Below are positions 7,046 through 11,785 of a stretch of 11,785 nt of DNA, piece by piece; position 1 is the first letter of the stretch; the number at the start of each line of letters is the position of its first letter. Origin of the DNA: a virus (Duplodnaviria > Heunggongvirae > Uroviricota > Caudoviricetes); the IMG/VR virus record IMGVR_UViG_2695420889_000011, positions 1 through 11,785 of that record; one strand, 5' to 3'. Made by a program: the position numbers and the translations under genes. The notes below the pieces were generated by a model. The model saw nothing but the letters and a program-made list of their open reading frames with translations. It was not told the origin of the DNA and searched no databases.

Positions 7046-7393
7046 TTACTTATCACATAAATCAAATGCAGCCTTAGTGACATCCCCTAGGCTCTTTTTT
7101 AACCCTGGGGCGGCATCATTATCTAGCCAAAATGGATTATTGTTATCTAACGGTAACGCACCAAATGTTTTACCTTTTATTCGAGCCAAACCTGTAAGTG
7201 CATATAACTTATTATCGTCAAAATTCATCACATAAGGATTACCATCAAGACACTGTAATTGAACCTCATCAGTATTAAATGGCCATACCCCATTGAAACT
7301 CTCACGTTCAATAGTTTTAAAAGGCATTGCGACGGCGGAAAAAGAAAACATAGATAAAAAAGTAACTAATAGTTGAACCTTTTTTACTTTCAT
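7046..7393 (-). CDS. Secreted/periplasmic small protein with signal peptide; possibly DUF2511 (YebY-like)
   Basis: 115-aa ORF with SD GAGGT 6 nt upstream. N-terminal signal peptide MKVKKVQLLVTFLSMFSFSAVA. The mature part has the pattern W-x-FN-x-[DE]EV-x-L-x-C-x-x-GN ... DN-x-x-PG-x-KKSL ... LC with two Cys; the resemblance to YebY is from memory only. Stop is 5 bp before the int start. Confidence 0.55.
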   Translation of the reverse strand: MKVKKVQLLVTFLSMFSFSAVAMPFKTIERESFNGVWPFNTDEVQLQCLDGNPYVMNFDDNKLYALTGLARIKGKTFGALPLDNNNPFWLDNDAAPGLKKSLGDVTKAAFDLCDK

Positions 7394-7422
7394 ATCATTA
7401 CCTCAATTTAGCTCAAGTAAGA

Positions 7423-8073
7423 TTACAAATTAAAAAACGCCCTAGAAATGACACCGCCTACCAAAACCCCTACGCAGATAAAGAATATTATTTCTTTTGG
7501 ATAAAGTCGGATTAATTCTGAAGCACGAAGTCGGACTTCTGGTAAGGTCGAACTCTCTGTGTGGCTTGATGCCGATTGTTGCTCTAACCACGACAATGCA
7601 GACTGTAACTGAGAACGAGTAAGATCGTTTAAACGTCCTGTACCGAAATTGATATGGCAATACCGCAGAAGTTTTTGTCGAAGTCCACAGTCTTCACTGT
7701 TACGTAGTAATAAACTTACAAGAGCCTTACAGGCATCATGATCTTTACATCGCTCAAGCATTGCATGCAGAAAACTCTCCGCTGTTTTATATTGATTTAC
7801 TGTCATATCATCAATACCAGCTACACCAATCTCCGCATGTACTTTTTGCCAAATAATAAACGCTTCAGTATTGCTAGCTTCTGCAATAGCAGCAACCAAG
7901 CTATTCAGCTCCTTACGCTGAGCCTTAAGCAAAGGGCGATCGTCATCATCATTATTCGAAGGGATTGCGATATTGACGGTATGAGAACCATCATATCGCT
8001 CTATCTGAATATTCTTTTCGTGAAAATCACGCCCAGCAACGCGATTGTTTGAACCGTTTGAGTTGACGGCCAT
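7423..8073 (-). CDS. Hypothetical protein (216 aa) with C-terminal transmembrane anchor
   Basis: Strong SD GGGAGGTG just upstream of the ATG, 15 bp after the repressor stop. Single hydrophobic C-terminal helix IIFFICVGVLVGGVISRAFF. The N-terminus shares an NNR[VI]AGRD[FY] motif with the C-terminus of the upstream repressor. Confidence 0.6.
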   Translation of the reverse strand: MAVNSNGSNNRVAGRDFHEKNIQIERYDGSHTVNIAIPSNNDDDDRPLLKAQRKELNSLVAAIAEASNTEAFIIWQKVHAEIGVAGIDDMTVNQYKTAESFLHAMLERCKDHDACKALVSLLLRNSEDCGLRQKLLRYCHINFGTGRLNDLTRSQLQSALSWLEQQSASSHTESSTLPEVRLRASELIRLYPKEIIFFICVGVLVGGVISRAFFNL

Positions 8074-8088
8074 GTCACCTCCCTACTA

Positions 8089-8493
8089 TCACCTACCCTT
8101 AGTTTCGTTATAGTCACGACCAGCGATACGGTTATTACCACCAGAAATATTTAACTCACGTCCTGATAGCTGAGTTTCCTTTTCACTGATCGCACCTTTT
8201 AAAGCCCCAATCACCGCGTTTTTCACATCTAACGAAGCTGCTCGAAAGCGAGTAATCAACTCCTGCTCATCATCGTTATAAGTTTCAGGTGAGTGAATTC
8301 CCAACACAACATACTGAACATCAAGGCCAAAACGAGACAGCGCTGCCAAATACGCAGCATCAGGAAAGCTATCTCCTTTCTCATATCTAAGCTGAGTTAG
8401 CTTTTTGACTCCACCAATGTCGCTCATGGCAACTTGACTAAGTCCCAATCTTTCCCTTTCCTCACGCAACCGCTGACCAATATCATTTTTCAT
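8089..8493 (-). CDS. XRE-family helix-turn-helix transcriptional regulator (CI-like repressor candidate)
   Basis: The N-terminus IGQRLREERERLGLSQVAMSDIGGVKKLTQLRYEKGDSFPDAAYLAALSRFGLDVQYVV is a typical HTH_XRE (Cro/C1-type) domain. First gene of the leftward operon ending in int, facing a divergent promoter region. Confidence 0.7.
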   Translation of the reverse strand: MKNDIGQRLREERERLGLSQVAMSDIGGVKKLTQLRYEKGDSFPDAAYLAALSRFGLDVQYVVLGIHSPETYNDDEQELITRFRAASLDVKNAVIGALKGAISEKETQLSGRELNISGGNNRIAGRDYNETKGR

Positions 8494-8502
8494 ACAAAAA
8501 CC

Positions 8503-8531
8503 TTGACAGGTATCTTTTTTGATACCAAAAT
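8503..8531. promoter_or_regulatory. Divergent promoter region with palindromic operator candidate GGTATC-T6-GATACC
   Basis: TTGACA at 8503-8508; perfect inverted repeat GGTATCTTTTTTGATACC at 8509-8526 occupying the spacer; weak -10-like CAAAAT at 8526-8531 with 17-bp spacing. Lies between the divergently transcribed repressor gene and the rightward operon. Confidence 0.35.
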
Positions 8532-8568
8532 GATTTCACGAGCTATTAGATGATCACAATATACCACT

Positions 8569-8775
8569 ATGAAACAAGTTCTTCACGATACCAGATCACG
8601 CATTCCGCGTAACACCGCCACAGGTCCAAGACTGGCACTTCGGCTGTCCCTCGAGGAGCGAGCCGTCATTGATGAAATGGCAGCTAAAGAACAACGCTCA
8701 TCCTCTAACATGGCGCGCATGATCTTCCTTCGCGGCCTAGAGCTAACCCAGAAAGAACAAAACAAATCTTCCTGA
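8569..8775 (+). CDS. Small DNA-binding protein candidate (ribbon-helix-helix-like), first gene of the rightward operon
   Basis: 68-aa ORF. The segment RLALRLSLEERAVIDEMAAKEQRSSSNMARMIFLRGL fits the beta-strand/helix/helix pattern of RHH regulators. No clear SD. The antisense ORF 8583-8765 looks like low-complexity junk. Confidence 0.4.
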   Translation: MKQVLHDTRSRIPRNTATGPRLALRLSLEERAVIDEMAAKEQRSSSNMARMIFLRGLELTQKEQNKSS

Positions 8776-8791
8776 TCAGGAGGCTAGTGGG

Positions 8792-8995
8792 ATGTCAGGT
8801 ATAACCATCAATATCAATGTGAATGCCCCCTATGTATCCCTGCAGAAATATGCAGAGATAACAGGTATCCCTCTTAATACATGCAAAAAGATGTTGGCTG
8901 ACGGTCGAATTATTATCCGCCCCAAACGCGCCAAAATGGAAAAGCCTGAAGTAAACCTTGTGGCGATGTTAAAAGACGCTTTGGCTAACAGCTAA
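8792..8995 (+). CDS. Small HTH protein, excisionase/AlpA-like regulator candidate
   Basis: 67-aa ORF with strong SD AGGAGG (8778-8783). The segment YVSLQKYAEITGIPLNTCKKMLADGRI is HTH-like, as in Xis/AlpA-type proteins. Confidence 0.5.
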   Translation: MSGITININVNAPYVSLQKYAEITGIPLNTCKKMLADGRIIIRPKRAKMEKPEVNLVAMLKDALANS

Positions 8996-9016
8996 AACAA
9001 TGAACAGAGCACCATC

Positions 9017-9367
9017 ATGAAAAAAAACGCTAATAATCCATACTCCAAATTTCGTAATGGCGTAGAACGCCATGTACACCACGTCGCTACCAGTGCATCA
9101 CGTAGTAACAGTCGCTATAACCTGAACGAAACACACGCAACACCGGATGGCCACGCTGTAAAACAAATCGGCGAGCATACCTGGCTGATTGAGAAAGCTG
9201 GAATCGTGGTCCACAAATGCCCACGCAATCCGTTTACCGGAAACCGCATTTTTGCATTGAGCTGCGGAGACAATCACTTCGGACAGGATTTCACATTATA
9301 CGAAGCACTTCGCACGGTTGATCGTCTGCTTCGCGGGCAAAGTTTTATTAAACAGGCTGATTTATAA
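9017..9367 (+). CDS. Hypothetical protein (116 aa)
   Basis: Intact ORF in the rightward operon; no recognisable motif; weak SD. Confidence 0.45.
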   Translation: MKKNANNPYSKFRNGVERHVHHVATSASRSNSRYNLNETHATPDGHAVKQIGEHTWLIEKAGIVVHKCPRNPFTGNRIFALSCGDNHFGQDFTLYEALRTVDRLLRGQSFIKQADL

Positions 9368-9377
9368 CAGGTGCTTT

Positions 9378-9692
9378 ATGACCAAAGAGCATGCACAAGG
9401 TGTATTTATCCGTTTTATTGATTTTCGCGGTGAACTGTTATTACGCGCATCCGCTATTGATGGAGTGGCTCCGGCGGGTAAAAACGGAGCCGACGAAGCC
9501 ACTTACGTTTATCTGAACGGCACGCGACTGCTTGTGGAACTTCCGTACCAGACCGTACGAGAAATCATTAGTGAAGCTGAAAAGGCACGCCTGGCTAATG
9601 GCGTGAACCCTATATCGAAATTATTTGTATGGATTCAGAAACTGAAATTCAGAAAGCAGATTAAAGGGCGTTGCGATGGGCAAAGAATATAA
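9378..9692 (+). CDS. Hypothetical protein (104 aa); start moved to the internal ATG at 9378
   Basis: The ORF-track start at 9318 would overlap the preceding gene by 50 bp. The in-frame ATG at 9378 has SD AGGTG 6 nt upstream and lies just after the preceding stop (9365-9367). Confidence 0.45.
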   Translation: MTKEHAQGVFIRFIDFRGELLLRASAIDGVAPAGKNGADEATYVYLNGTRLLVELPYQTVREIISEAEKARLANGVNPISKLFVWIQKLKFRKQIKGRCDGQRI

Positions 9693-9918
9693 AACTCTCA
9701 TTAACAAAGCACTTGAGCGTTTTTATTTTCGCTTAAGTGCATCAGGCGCTCATGCTGAACGAGCAGCCCGTGACTCATTGACCAGGGCAATCCGGAGTCT
9801 GTATGACGTGGCTTTTTACGCTGATGATCTGGATGCACTTAACGAACTTTCCGAGCTGATCTGTGCCGCAGAATGCGGGGAACATATTGAACCGTATAAG
9901 CTGGGGAATATTGCATGA
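9676..9918 (+). CDS. Hypothetical protein (80 aa)
   Basis: Intact ORF with AAGGG about 8 nt upstream; overlaps the 9378-9692 gene by 17 bp, consistent with an operon. Confidence 0.45.
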   Translation: MGKEYKTLINKALERFYFRLSASGAHAERAARDSLTRAIRSLYDVAFYADDLDALNELSELICAAECGEHIEPYKLGNIA

Positions 9919-10028
9919 GTATATTTATCTCATGGCTTGTTCTGATTATTTCGGTGGCCTGCGCCATTGGGATTATGCGAATTATTCATTCAGTAAAAAA
10001 GATTGAACGCTTTTTCACTGGTGAATAA
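9915..10028 (+). CDS. Small hydrophobic peptide (37 aa, MSIFISWLVLIISVACAIGIMRIIHSVKKIERFFTGE), single predicted TM helix
   Basis: Hand-translated; not in the ORF track because it is under 60 aa. Its ATG overlaps the stop of the upstream gene (ATGA at 9915-9918), suggesting translational coupling. Confidence 0.3.
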   Translation: MSIFISWLVLIISVACAIGIMRIIHSVKKIERFFTGE

Positions 10029-10121
10029 CGATACAAATAAAGCATCAAATTAAATAAGAAAACGTGAAAACCATCCGTATTAACGGAGGTATTCGCACAC
10101 GCAAATAACGGAGATACAAAA

Positions 10122-10532
10122 ATGCACGCAAAAGAAGAAGGTATCATCAGAGCACTGAAAGAAATTTCAAAGACAGAAAACGAAGTAGCGAAAAAAGCCG
10201 TGGCAAATGCACATATGGACGTCGCAACCCACACACTGATAGTCGCAAGAGTCACGGCAGAAGCAGCCGAAATTATCGCAAAACAGGATGCTGAACTGGC
10301 GGTTCTCAGAACACAACCAGTCACCGGACTGGATTTGTCTAACACCGGACGCCTTATTTACACAATTGGCTCGGAGCTACAGCGATACACCATTATCGCC
10401 GGATTACAGGATAAATACCTGATCACTCCTCACCCCATAAGGGAATCAGAAATTCTGACAAATCTCCGCCTGATAGAACGCTCTCAAGTTGTATTCATTG
10501 ATGACGCGCAATGTGCCGTATTTAACGCATAG
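10122..10532 (+). CDS. Hypothetical protein (136 aa)
   Basis: Intact ORF with SD GGAG about 9 nt upstream; no recognisable motif. Confidence 0.5.
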   Translation: MHAKEEGIIRALKEISKTENEVAKKAVANAHMDVATHTLIVARVTAEAAEIIAKQDAELAVLRTQPVTGLDLSNTGRLIYTIGSELQRYTIIAGLQDKYLITPHPIRESEILTNLRLIERSQVVFIDDAQCAVFNA

Positions 10533-10555
10533 GGTTACTGGACAAAGGGGGCGCA

Positions 10556-10759
10556 ATGGCAATTAAGCATTTTCCCGTCGTTCGCTTTACCTCCAGAGGG
10601 CGCGAATACGAGGTCGACGAACGCCTGATTACCACTATCGACAAACATCGTTCGGAAAAGGATGCACACCACATCTACCTCACTGACGGCACTTACTTCT
10701 GCGCCACCAACGTGGCGCGGGTGAATCTTATCCGACAGGTACAGGAGCCACGCAGATGA
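10556..10759 (+). CDS. Hypothetical protein (67 aa)
   Basis: Intact ORF with SD AAGGGGG upstream; stop overlaps the next start (ATGA at 10756-10759). Confidence 0.5.
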   Translation: MAIKHFPVVRFTSRGREYEVDERLITTIDKHRSEKDAHHIYLTDGTYFCATNVARVNLIRQVQEPRR

Positions 10760-11022
10760 CCATTCTGGACTACATCGCTACTCATCCGGGGTGTAGCGGC
10801 GGAGAGATCGCCGCAGCACTGAATACCCCAACCACAGCCATTAATGCTGAGTTACGCCGACTTTGGCGCGGCGGCTTAGTCATCAGAACAAACCGCAGCA
10901 CAGGTGGTCGCGCTCGCAAAACAGGAGGCCAGGCTTCTTACCACGTAAACCCGATGCTGTTCGGGTGTAGTAATCCACTTACTCACATGTTTAACCAGCT
11001 ACTGAAGGAAGCCAGAGCATGA
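10756..11022 (+). CDS. Winged-helix DNA-binding protein candidate (88 aa)
   Basis: The segment LDYIATHPGCSGGEIAAALNTPTTAINAELRRLWRGGLV resembles a winged-HTH recognition module. SD AGGAG 10 nt upstream. Stop overlaps the next start (ATGA at 11019-11022). Confidence 0.5.
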   Translation: MTILDYIATHPGCSGGEIAAALNTPTTAINAELRRLWRGGLVIRTNRSTGGRARKTGGQASYHVNPMLFGCSNPLTHMFNQLLKEARA

Positions 11023-11318
11023 GCACCATCAACCACCAGAAGCTACGCGAACTGGCATTTGCCCTGCAACGAATGGCAACGCCTCAAAAATTACTGGCAT
11101 TTCGCGCAATGCTCTCGCCGTCTGCTGTGCTGGCACTGCTGGATCAGCTGGAGCACGCCAGAACCACTGCTCCAGCCATTCGCCTCACGCTCCATCATGA
11201 AATCGCTGATTTCTGCGCAACGCTGGGGGCACCTGGCGAACCGGAAACGCCGGAAGCAATGCAGCAAGAGCTGCTGCAACGCATCGATAACGTTTTTGAT
11301 TTTTTTCTGAACCAGTAA
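11019..11318 (+). CDS. Hypothetical protein (99 aa), last gene of the rightward operon
   Basis: Intact ORF translationally coupled to the upstream gene. Chosen over the overlapping alternative-frame ORFs 11059-11310 (+) and 11091-11357 (-) because of the coupling and operon context. Confidence 0.5.
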   Translation: MSTINHQKLRELAFALQRMATPQKLLAFRAMLSPSAVLALLDQLEHARTTAPAIRLTLHHEIADFCATLGAPGEPETPEAMQQELLQRIDNVFDFFLNQ

Positions 11319-11339
11319 GAAACCAGAACATGCACACAC

Positions 11340-11461
11340 AAAAAAACCGCTTGCCATGCCTCAATCGGTCAGGTTACATTTCCGCTGCACCTCATAAAAC
11401 GGGCGCCGGGATTCTCAACCCGATACAGAGCAAAGCGCATAACCGCGCAAGCGGTTTTTTT
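11340..11461 (+). terminator. Terminator-like structured element: 15-bp perfect long-range inverted repeat ending in a GNRA hairpin and T-run
   Basis: AAAAAAACCGCTTGC (11340-11354) is the exact reverse complement of GCAAGCGGTTTTTTT (11447-11461). A local hairpin AACCGC-GCAA-GCGGTT (11441-11456) is followed by a T-run. Located 22 bp after the operon stop. Confidence 0.4.
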
Positions 11462-11473
11462 GTGCGTACTGTA

Positions 11474-11502
11474 TTGCCACGTCTTTTTCGCGTCAGAATT
11501 AT
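11474..11502 (+). promoter_or_regulatory. Candidate sigma-70 promoter for the downstream leader and gene
   Basis: TTGCCA (11474-11479), 17-bp spacer, AATTAT (11497-11502). Sequence-only prediction. Confidence 0.3.
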
Positions 11503-11518
11503 GGCGGGGCGTACGGGG

Positions 11519-11633
11519 CCGACTTCGGTCGGACCGGATTCTTTGCTCTCCGGTGTTGAGAACCCTGTACGTCTCGCCACCCCGAGATTCTCAACTCTGG
11601 ATGGTGAGTTATTTCTATCACCGAGCAAAGAGG
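11519..11633 (+). promoter_or_regulatory. Structured 5' leader / riboregulatory element with alternative pairings that can occlude the SD of the downstream gene
   Basis: UUCG-tetraloop hairpin CCGAC-TTCG-GTCGG (11519-11532). Segment CTTTGCTCT...GTTGAGAACCC (11541-11565) is complementary to GATTCTCAAC (11586-11595) and GAGCAAAG (11623-11630), the latter abutting the SD AGAGG (about 11629-11633). It is also complementary to an upstream copy at 11408-11435. Confidence 0.35.
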
Positions 11634-11640
11634 CCACACC

Positions 11641-11785
11641 ATGGCAGACCGCAAACAGCACCGCGCTATCGCGGAGCGTCGTCACATCCAGACTGAAATC
11701 AACCGCAGACTTTCCCGCGCATCACGCGTCGCGCAAATCATGCACATCAATATGCTGCATGAGCGCAGCCACGCACTATCAAACA
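11641..11785 (+). CDS. Hypothetical protein, 5' part only (runs off the window end)
   Basis: ATG at 11641 with SD GAGG 7 nt upstream. Open frame MADRKQHRAIAERRHIQTEINRRLSRASRVAQIMHINMLHERSHALSN... continues to the window edge. Hand-translated; absent from the ORF track because of length. Confidence 0.45.
   Translation, partial: MADRKQHRAIAERRHIQTEINRRLSRASRVAQIMHINMLHERSHALSN

Follow-up and report, generated by a model that had tools for sequence, protein, structure and literature searches.

Accessory genes carried in a lysogeny operon, between the repressor gene and the integrase gene, are an already known kind of prophage cargo, and several described elements can be compared with the locus treated here: the repressor-to-int region of a P2-family prophage in an 11,785-nucleotide stretch of viral DNA (IMG/VR virus record IMGVR_UViG_2695420889_000011, positions 1 to 11,785; 'the window' below is that whole stretch). 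The closest known analogue is Vibrio phage K139, also of the P2 family, in which cI-orf2-glo-int are expressed from a mapped lysogenic promoter (PL) and the accessory genes between repressor and int include that of Glo, a small periplasmic protein annotated for phage exclusion. The cI-rexA-rexB genes of lambda likewise include an accessory membrane protein that is co-transcribed with the repressor in the lysogen. In lactococcal and streptococcal phages, the genes of Sie2009 and Ltp lie between those of repressor and integrase, and their lysogen-expressed products, which are membrane or exported proteins, block DNA entry; in ICEBs1 the order immR-immA-int corresponds to a repressor, a repressor-modulating protein and int.

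In the window, the lysogeny (immunity) operon of a prophage that is P88-like and belongs to the P2 family is made up of four genes: those of a repressor (termed R here), of a membrane protein (F), of a third protein referred to as the cargo, and of the integrase. Their positions, with those of the segments on which the argument depends, are:

8089-8493, minus strand: R, an XRE helix-turn-helix (HTH) repressor of 134 amino acids (Pfam, PHROG)
8104-8154, minus strand: R tail motif LNISGGNNRIAGRDYNE, amino acids 114-130, followed by TKGR and the triple stop TGA TAG TAG
7423-8073, minus strand: F, a tail-anchored protein of 216 amino acids (open reading frame; NCBIfam, PHROG, AlphaFold2 (AF2))
8017-8067, minus strand: F head motif VNSNGSNNRVAGRDFHE, amino acids 3-19, predicted to be disordered
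7429-7500, minus strand: predicted membrane anchor of F, amino acids ~192-215 (hydropathy, AF2 helix 192-215)
7046-7393, minus strand: cargo, a DUF2511 protein of 115 amino acids (open reading frame; Pfam, PDB, PHROG 2950)
6039-7040, minus strand: int, a P2-type tyrosine integrase and the final gene of the operon (Pfam Int_N 5e-32, Phage_integrase 2.5e-22)

An earlier note on this DNA, made from its letters alone, had described four co-oriented and tightly spaced genes, among them those of a C-terminally anchored 216-amino-acid protein and of a 115-amino-acid signal-peptide protein, and these descriptions are borne out. The four reading frames share one strand, with intergenic gaps of 15, 29 and 5 nucleotides and no terminator-like site on the minus strand from 8493 to 6039; RefSeq annotates the same four genes; the anchor of F is supported both by hydropathy and by the AF2 helix at residues 192-215; and the third protein begins with a Sec-type signal that has an AXA site. 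The note's further statement that neither product has a known function is right in that the prophage versions are unstudied, but both proteins belong to named families (Flk_N, PF27202, for F; DUF2511/YebY for the cargo).

The likeness to the described systems goes only so far. Glo of K139 is not homologous to the DUF2511 protein (E=7.5), the K139 cI protein has 215 amino acids, and the K139 record lists no Flk_N gene, although the product of orf2 is a BRCT-domain protein of a type that is also found at the corresponding position in Klebsiella and Enterobacter. The lambda rex genes show no homology (the PADLOC comparison was blank), RexB is polytopic and has RexA rather than the repressor as its partner, and no terminal motif shared by repressor and membrane protein is known. 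Sie2009 and Ltp come from Gram-positive siphoviruses and have no sequence relationship to F or to the cargo; we know of no repressor-matched motif in either.

It is precisely such a motif that is found in the prophage described here, at the C-terminal tail of R and at the N-terminal head of F. R consists of an HTH domain (residues 1-65; Pfam HTH_31/HTH_3; repressor families PHROG 8/4/3), two helices (74-110) and a disordered tail (106-134), for which the predicted local distance difference test (pLDDT) of AF2 is below 50; its C-terminal end reads ...LNISGGNNRIAGRDYNETKGR, while F starts MAVNSNGSNNRVAGRDFHEKN. Ten of the 17 aligned residues of tail and head are identical, and because 6 of those 10 are specified by different codons, the likeness is kept at the level of the protein. 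The motif occurs only twice in the 37-kb prophage, in the R tail and the F head, and the match between the two stands at z=9.2 against shuffles. Matching tails and heads were found in seven of nine diverged lineages (z of 4.4 to 12 against shuffled tails), and no more than 17 of 362,880 permutations of the partners reach the cognate score sum. The motif itself varies between lineages while being matched within R-F pairs: the classes NRxAGRDY, QQFxGxVxxVxxGD, GxFAxRDIVN and QIAGxxIY all occur as pairs, and examples of R tail and F head, in that order, are QQFNGPVGTVTTGDVVN and QQFHGAVEQVAAGDIKN (L022), FNAPISGGEFAARDIVN and FNNQIHDGQFAGRDIVN (L024), and VHGDVGQTVKGNV and IHGDVGIVAEGDV (L026). 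AF2 models of the monomers give low confidence to both motif regions, beside well-folded domains.

Two simpler sources of the match were considered and rejected: chance similarity, by the shuffle and permutation tests, and gene conversion, by the differing synonymous codons, by a matching pair that is encoded on opposite strands (L118) and by the presence of the motif on unrelated proteins. Candidatus Symbiopectobacterium, a symbiont whose genome is degenerating, has a locus (L021, 3605-4631) with a frameshift in F and with substitutions at otherwise invariant positions in both copies of the motif (AGNNF in R, AVRDF in F), a combination consistent with joint decay of the R-F pair.

The two genes are also linked without exception in the loci that were gathered through F. 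These number about 100, drawn from NCBI E. coli and Klebsiella genomes, nine other genera and 80 IMG/VR contigs, and in all of them an HTH repressor of 125-140 amino acids ends just upstream of F; the same order is kept in the distant L022 (a phage with holin and transglycosylase genes), in the Mu-like L023 and in L024-L027. Searches that used R only led to the same arrangement, with an R tail GQIAGGNIY followed by a Flk_N protein with the head EQIAGRDIY in Gilliamella, and an R tail GQFAGNQIINN followed by a Flk_N protein with the head GQFSSRDIINI in Pectobacterium. The reciprocal comparison used 35 non-redundant loci of R homologues, which are not phylogenetically independent and whose tail classes were assigned manually: a matching next gene that bears a hydrophobic segment is present at 28 of 29 loci with a tailed R and at 0 of 6 with a tail-less R, where int, a cargo-type membrane protein or an unrelated gene takes its place. 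Among the 120 R homologues listed, about 48 have a class A tail and about 39 more have a tail of another class. Phage P88, one of the nearest relatives of the prophage, has an early region that is 89-94% identical but a C-type repressor and neither F nor the cargo; F therefore belongs to the immunity module and not to the phage backbone.

At the junction of the two genes (8074-8091), the three stops of R (TGA TAG TAG) are followed by GGAGGT GAC ATG of F, in the same reading frame. The stop of R and the start of F overlap in other lineages (L022, L024, L116), an arrangement that suggests translational coupling.

The pairing of motifs is not confined to F. When IMG/VR was scanned with the back-translated class A motif, 54 occurrences fell in F proteins, 49 in R proteins and 26 elsewhere, the last being mostly the N-terminal heads of unrelated small membrane proteins (a Zn-ribbon with two transmembrane (TM) segments, a helix with two TM segments, and a type of 187 amino acids), for which Pfam gave only a sub-threshold match to DUF3619. 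Such small head-bearing proteins were seen at L122, L126, L136, L138, L162, L176 and L185, and in all six cases inspected the gene directly upstream encodes a repressor with that motif at its end. In one of these repressors the N-terminal region differs from the XRE HTH of R and appears to resemble the phage CI-repressor type. Ralstonia phage YO107_2 (L119, 1656-3708) has three motif bearers, namely R, a Flk_N-like protein and a polytopic protein of 130 amino acids, while in YO077_2 the R-F pair is matched though its members are encoded on opposite strands. Because the same head is carried by unrelated small membrane proteins, the common denominator, as judged from these sequences, is a repressor tail with the head of a membrane-anchored protein and not the Flk_N domain as such.

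F belongs to PHROG 5825 (4e-103), and PF27202 (Flk_N) is recorded, as a precomputed annotation, on nearly all of its homologues. Its match to the NCBIfam model of Flk, PRK10715, is partial and below cutoff (8.6e-16 over residues 37-166), and F falls well short of a full-length equivalog: it scores 58 bits where the cutoff is 353, and it has 216 amino acids where ~330 would be expected. The AF2 model shows a confident helical core (45-172) and a C-terminal helix (192-215), whereas residues 1-41 have a pLDDT below 50; despite that low confidence, this N-terminal segment is among the best-conserved parts of the family. The single hydrophobic stretch lies at the extreme C-terminus (Kyte-Doolittle 19-residue maximum of 2.36 at residue 195) and is kept in 28 F homologues, so that F is predicted to face the cytoplasm and to be anchored C-terminally in the inner membrane. 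Flk_N was the sole domain found in Pfam and NCBIfam scans, which gave no recognisable toxin family, and no PADLOC defence model matches F. Prophages of Klebsiella pneumoniae carry the F-like family very often (P0095, on 754 contigs), but among deposited phage genomes F-like genes were found only in phage 520873 (a prophage-derived E. coli record) and in three Ralstonia phages, a rarity that leaves no studied phage as a model.

The Flk of E. coli is an experimentally verified tail-anchored protein that faces the cytoplasm (PMC6794478, PMC13344023); it blocks the export of late substrates, and an interaction with FlhA_C has been proposed and tested by two-hybrid assay (PMC13344023). Flk (also RflH or 'Fluke') of Salmonella and E. 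coli thus resembles F in its helical Flk_N domain, its tail anchor and its cytoplasmic bulk. It differs in being a chromosomal inhibitor of the flagellar export gate, of 320-410 amino acids, that starts MQPxSGPG and has no head motif, whereas F is phage-borne, has 185-225 amino acids and always follows a tailed repressor. The absence of the head motif extends to the chromosomal Flk proteins in general, and long Flk proteins form a separate length class.

For the matched termini themselves, two other kinds of system offer parallels. The amyloid motif pairs (NWD2/HET-S; BASS1-10; Bab/Agp, BASS11) also place a common terminal motif on the products of adjacent genes, one of which is a membrane-targeted effector. 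In those pairs, however, an NLR or some other large protein of several domains acts as the sensor, and the motif of the effector is C-terminal, while here the motif lies on the C-terminus of a 134-amino-acid repressor and the N-terminus of a membrane protein, and class A is unusually charged. Type II toxin-antitoxin systems share with the R-F pair an HTH protein with a disordered C-terminal tail that binds a partner (in R, would bind it), and a closely coupled second gene. Neither they nor ICEBs1 correspond fully: F has no toxin or protease signature, the tails of antitoxins are not known to mimic the sequence of the toxin, and R gave only weak, sub-threshold matches of the MqsA/HipB type to toxin-antitoxin HTHs. 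No description of a matched-termini pair of repressor and membrane protein was found in the open-access papers and preprints searched, a body of literature that omits most subscription journals, and papers on CP-933T, on Flk with prophages and on membrane-anchored repressor partners contained no description of these genes.

Our interpretation, towards which we lean with modest confidence, is that R and F form an immunity module with pairing ends and that the third gene is cargo. F would be made together with R, as part of that module. Given the obligate linkage, the co-variation of the motifs and their modularity, it is most likely that R and F bind directly via tail and head, which would pair most simply as beta-strands and so couple the repressor pool to a membrane-bound protein. 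Such a coupling could work in either of two ways. F might hold or limit part of the R pool at the membrane, as a buffer or as an induction switch; or the R tail might mimic the F head and cap it, blocking self-association of F while the repressor is plentiful, so that F would self-associate and act only upon loss of the repressor, by the logic of an antitoxin tail or a guard. Transcription of the third gene in the lysogen would presumably start at the repressor promoter, and its product would most plausibly act at the envelope, by exclusion or by binding an external agent, as does Glo in K139.

The second of these options can be generalised, although we offer the result tentatively and regard it as a possibility rather than an expectation: a modular 'repressor-guard' switch in which the repressor tail is a mimic or template of the head of a co-expressed membrane protein (Flk_N, Zn-ribbon-2TM or others) and caps or holds it while the repressor is abundant. 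When the repressor was titrated, degraded or bound by an antirepressor, the heads would self-assemble, possibly in an amyloid-like beta form, and bring about cell killing, phage exclusion or the timing of lysis. If true, P2-like, Mu-like and other phages of Proteobacteria would share a class of regulatory module that has not been recognised before, one that connects the immunity state straight to the membrane. Binding of R and F through their matched ends would in itself be a new link in prophages between the lysis-lysogeny switch and the cell membrane, as well as a simple, swappable interaction tag that might be exploited for engineering.

Several observations count against the pairing of R and F within an immunity operon as set out above. 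There is no evident advantage in tethering an immunity repressor to the membrane. Two of the nine lineages (L109 and L110) have no significant match of tail and head, the tailed R of L256 has no matching neighbour, and, for class B motifs, the cognate partner is not always the top scorer, so that the co-variation lies largely at the level of the motif class. No R-F fusion was found among 232 R homologues and 92 F representatives (the R homologues all have at most 227 amino acids, and there is no HTH among the F representatives). The grouping of the genes as one transcription unit is suggested by their spacing and by the lack of terminator-like sites, and a consensus scan gave no minus-strand promoter. 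As to the cargo, the DUF2511 protein has no match to a known exclusion or defence protein, either in PADLOC or in the comparison with Glo (E=7.5).

Among the other readings of the locus, the one that shares most of its premises with direct pairing is amyloid-like signalling, in which the R tail would template the head of F (or of another membrane protein) into a cross-beta assembly, so that a change in the state of the repressor would lead to oligomerisation of a membrane effector and thereby to death, abortive infection or faster lysis. The occurrence of one short motif at the facing termini of the products of adjacent genes, co-varying by lineage, is the defining genomic signature of such systems; the effector-side proteins here are all membrane proteins, and G, N, Q and V are abundant in the motifs (class B above all, as in HGDVGIVAEGDVIQNNSNVIHLG), which are disordered in the monomer models. 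In some F heads (P0143, P0145, P0156), moreover, the GRD unit is present twice, as against once in R, which resembles the relation of HET-s, with two repeats, to NWD2, with one. A precedent exists in Bab/Agp, an abortive-infection (Abi) system of E. coli prophage defence hotspots (bioRxiv 10.1101/2024.11.07.622273). A strict amyloid reading nevertheless has to contend with a class A motif that is both short and charged, and with the lack of a large sensor protein, and we judge it unlikely. A different kind of explanation has the motif recognised by a third party, either a host factor such as a membrane protease (FtsH, RseP) or a phage antirepressor, to which it would serve as degron or docking site, with F as a membrane decoy or adaptor that tunes the stability of the repressor. 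Disordered terminal tails with basic ends are typical of degrons, another example of which is the C-terminal tag of lambda CII, and the prophage has an isrK/C4-type antisense RNA module beside a 76-amino-acid reading frame at the position of the 'derepression protein' of P88. The CII protein of phage 186 offers a parallel, being reported to be degraded by FtsH and RseP (PMC7708051). A conserved host reader, however, would not be expected to go with very different motif classes that are matched by pair within one host genus; the two classes seen in Pectobacterium favour specificity of the R-F pair, and the prophage contains no third bearer of the motif, so that this explanation seems decidedly unlikely.

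The earlier note had itself proposed that F and the periplasmic protein are a two-part cargo for envelope exclusion or abortive infection, like cI-rexA-rexB. Their position in a lysogeny operon speaks for this, as do the exclusion protein Glo, periplasmic and at the same place in K139, the recurrence of exported proteins or lipoproteins downstream of the motif-headed membrane protein in many lineages, and a TIR-TM gene two genes past F in L022. Yet F is invariant while the third gene is missing or is replaced by one of at least 10 alternatives (cytoplasmic BRCT-type and DUF8087 proteins among them), the presence of F goes with the repressor tail and not with the cargo, PADLOC was blank for both proteins and the DUF2511 protein is not homologous to Glo; we consider a two-part cargo improbable, and a specific partnership of F with the 115-amino-acid protein is not supported, since F co-occurs with about 10 different third genes. 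The homology to Flk_N, together with a membrane topology like that of Flk, raises a last alternative, that F is a prophage mimic of Flk which acts on the flagellar type III export gate (FlhA/FlhB) to alter motility or to block flagellotropic phages. Set against it are the great abundance of the family in prophages of Klebsiella pneumoniae, a generally non-flagellate species, the chromosomal Flk proteins that have no head motif, and the use of the same position and head by non-Flk_N proteins in other phages, which together make it very improbable. The pair-specific motif classes and the abundance in Klebsiella are the reasons for which the shared-degron (or decoy) and Flk-mimic models are less likely than direct pairing of R and F.

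What does vary at this locus is the third position. Between F and int there are 222 to 1851 bp, occupied by one of at least 10 alternative sets of same-strand genes or by none: the contents include DUF2511 proteins, a BRCT-domain protein of 288-295 amino acids, DUF8087, a protein of 291-313 amino acids, a membrane protein of 244 amino acids, three signal-peptide proteins (one of them VasI-like), multi-gene sets and, at L027, nothing, F being present there all the same. One and the same cargo type is found with F alleles that are 54-61% identical, and F alleles that are 86% identical are found with different cargo; this mismatch, with the variety of contents, marks the third position as the only one at which genes are swapped. 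The suggestion that cargo lies between repressor and int, with different genes at the same position in homologous elements, accordingly applies to the third gene and not to F, which is never exchanged and follows this type of repressor in every locus examined.

In the present sample, a YebY-like protein is the commonest occupant of this slot in E. coli. The product in the window starts MKVKKVQLLVTFLSMFSFSAVA, a Sec signal with its hydrophobic maximum at residues 6-9, followed by MP; the signal peptide covers amino acids 1-22 (nucleotides 7328-7393), with predicted cleavage between AVA and M. The protein matches DUF2511 (PF10709) with 28.4 bits against a gathering score of 21 and the YebY structure (PDB 7n0j) with E=0.0027, and it keeps Trp37, Cys48 and Cys113 of YebY. 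YebY itself is a periplasmic protein with an uncertain function and with a fold like that of the lantibiotic-binding MlbQ; its Cys48 and Cys113 form a disulfide, and yebY homologues between a XerD-like recombinase and a CI-type repressor have already been noted in Enterobacteriaceae (PMC8689200). The likeness to YebY and MlbQ thus comprises the DUF2511 domain, the signal peptide and the positions of Trp37 and Cys48-Cys113; the differences are that YebY belongs to the yobA-yebZ-yebY copper operon, whereas the cargo lies between F and int and is only distantly similar.

PADLOC gave no match for the DUF2511 protein and only weak matches (PDC-S48, WYL) for the cargo of enterobacterial loci, and a role of the DUF2511 protein in exclusion or defence is suggested by analogy. 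The TIR-TM defence gene of L022 (PADLOC 4e-103; 3990-4862) lies just before the holin gene, with a lipoprotein gene between F and it. In non-enteric relatives, a lipoprotein very often follows the motif-headed membrane protein (L126, L185, L136, L022, L023, L176), exported third genes being located at L126:972-1451, L022:3591-3968 and L023:3635-4165; that of L126 has a BamE domain (8.5e-07). These recurrent lipoproteins hint at a third, exported component, and recurrent exported proteins downstream may keep a looser form of the envelope idea alive. A recent survey counts the interval between int and the primase gene among the minor defence hotspots of P2-like phages (PMC13586616), and the slot beside int is a small, well-delimited place in which to search for new envelope or defence genes that are expressed in lysogens. 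The module as a whole is present in about one in ten complete E. coli genomes (O157:H7 and O145 included) and in very many Klebsiella genomes, so that its genes are presumably expressed in a large share of clinical lysogens.

On the other side of R lies the early region, in the divergent layout that is usual for the immunity region of P2-type phages, with 75 bp between R and the Arc-like and Cox-like early genes. The features of that region, with two RNA genes further on, are:

8503-8531, plus strand: promoter-like site of the early operon, TTGACA-17-CAAAAT (consensus scan)
8569-8775, plus strand: Arc-like early regulator (PHROG 3431, 9.8e-29)
8792-8995, plus strand: Cox-like early regulator (PHROG 575, 1.2e-27)
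11387-11461, plus strand: isrK Hfq-binding RNA (Rfam, above the gathering score, 58 bits)
11497-11584, plus strand: C4 antisense RNA (Rfam, above the gathering score, 76 bits)

A perfect palindrome, GGTATC-N6-GATACC (8509-8526), lies between the -35 and -10 elements of the early promoter-like site, and a 12-nucleotide direct repeat, ATACCAAAATGA and ATACCACTATGA, is found at 8522 and 8561; both are candidate operators. The same Arc-like and Cox-like early regulators are annotated in phage 520873. RefSeq places a minus-strand reading frame of 45 amino acids at 8583-8720, overlapping the plus-strand frame of 68 amino acids that encodes the Arc-like protein; this call is probably wrong, because the plus-strand frame matches both PHROG 3431 and the annotation of phage 520873. 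The isrK and C4 RNAs adjoin the 76-amino-acid reading frame mentioned above, which was placed by its position relative to P88, and together they suggest an antisense-controlled antirepressor like that of P1 immI in a P2-like prophage.

The window is 100% identical to the genome of the O145 E. coli strain RM11626-C1. From ~5933 onward it enters a complete 37-kb prophage of the P2 family, the nearest relatives of which are phage P88 and phage 520873 (genus Xuanwuvirus), inserted in the tRNA-Leu gene of the leuZ-cysT-glyW cluster. The left end of the prophage is marked by the following feature:

5837-5932, no strand assigned: attachment (att) repeat, the 3' 55 nucleotides of tRNA-Leu plus 41 nucleotides downstream

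This 96-bp repeat is 100% identical to the intact tRNA-Leu region at the far end of the prophage in RM11626-C1, and it includes the terminator downstream of the tRNA; ARAGORN found no tRNA at 5837-5932 because only a fragment of tRNA-Leu is present there. Of 5426 complete E. coli genomes, 516, O157:H7 among them, contain the 3-kb block of the four operon genes with a coverage of at least 80%. Within the prophage, a reading frame at 9318-9692, flanked by DUF4761 and DUF4754 genes, is frameshifted according to the RefSeq annotation.

Positions 1 to ~5800 of the window belong to another element at the same tRNA-Leu, with a large DNA polymerase gene of the family B type, recombinase remnants and an IS3 fragment. 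Its reading frames include those at 1871-4426 (plus strand), 4895-5635 (plus strand) and 4266-4844 (minus strand), a DNA polymerase of 851 amino acids (a DNA-directed DNA polymerase according to RefSeq), a truncated integrase with an Arm domain and a tyrosine-recombinase-like frame at 65-985. The element resembles an E. coli pipolin (a primer-independent PolB element) and may be one, in tandem with the prophage.

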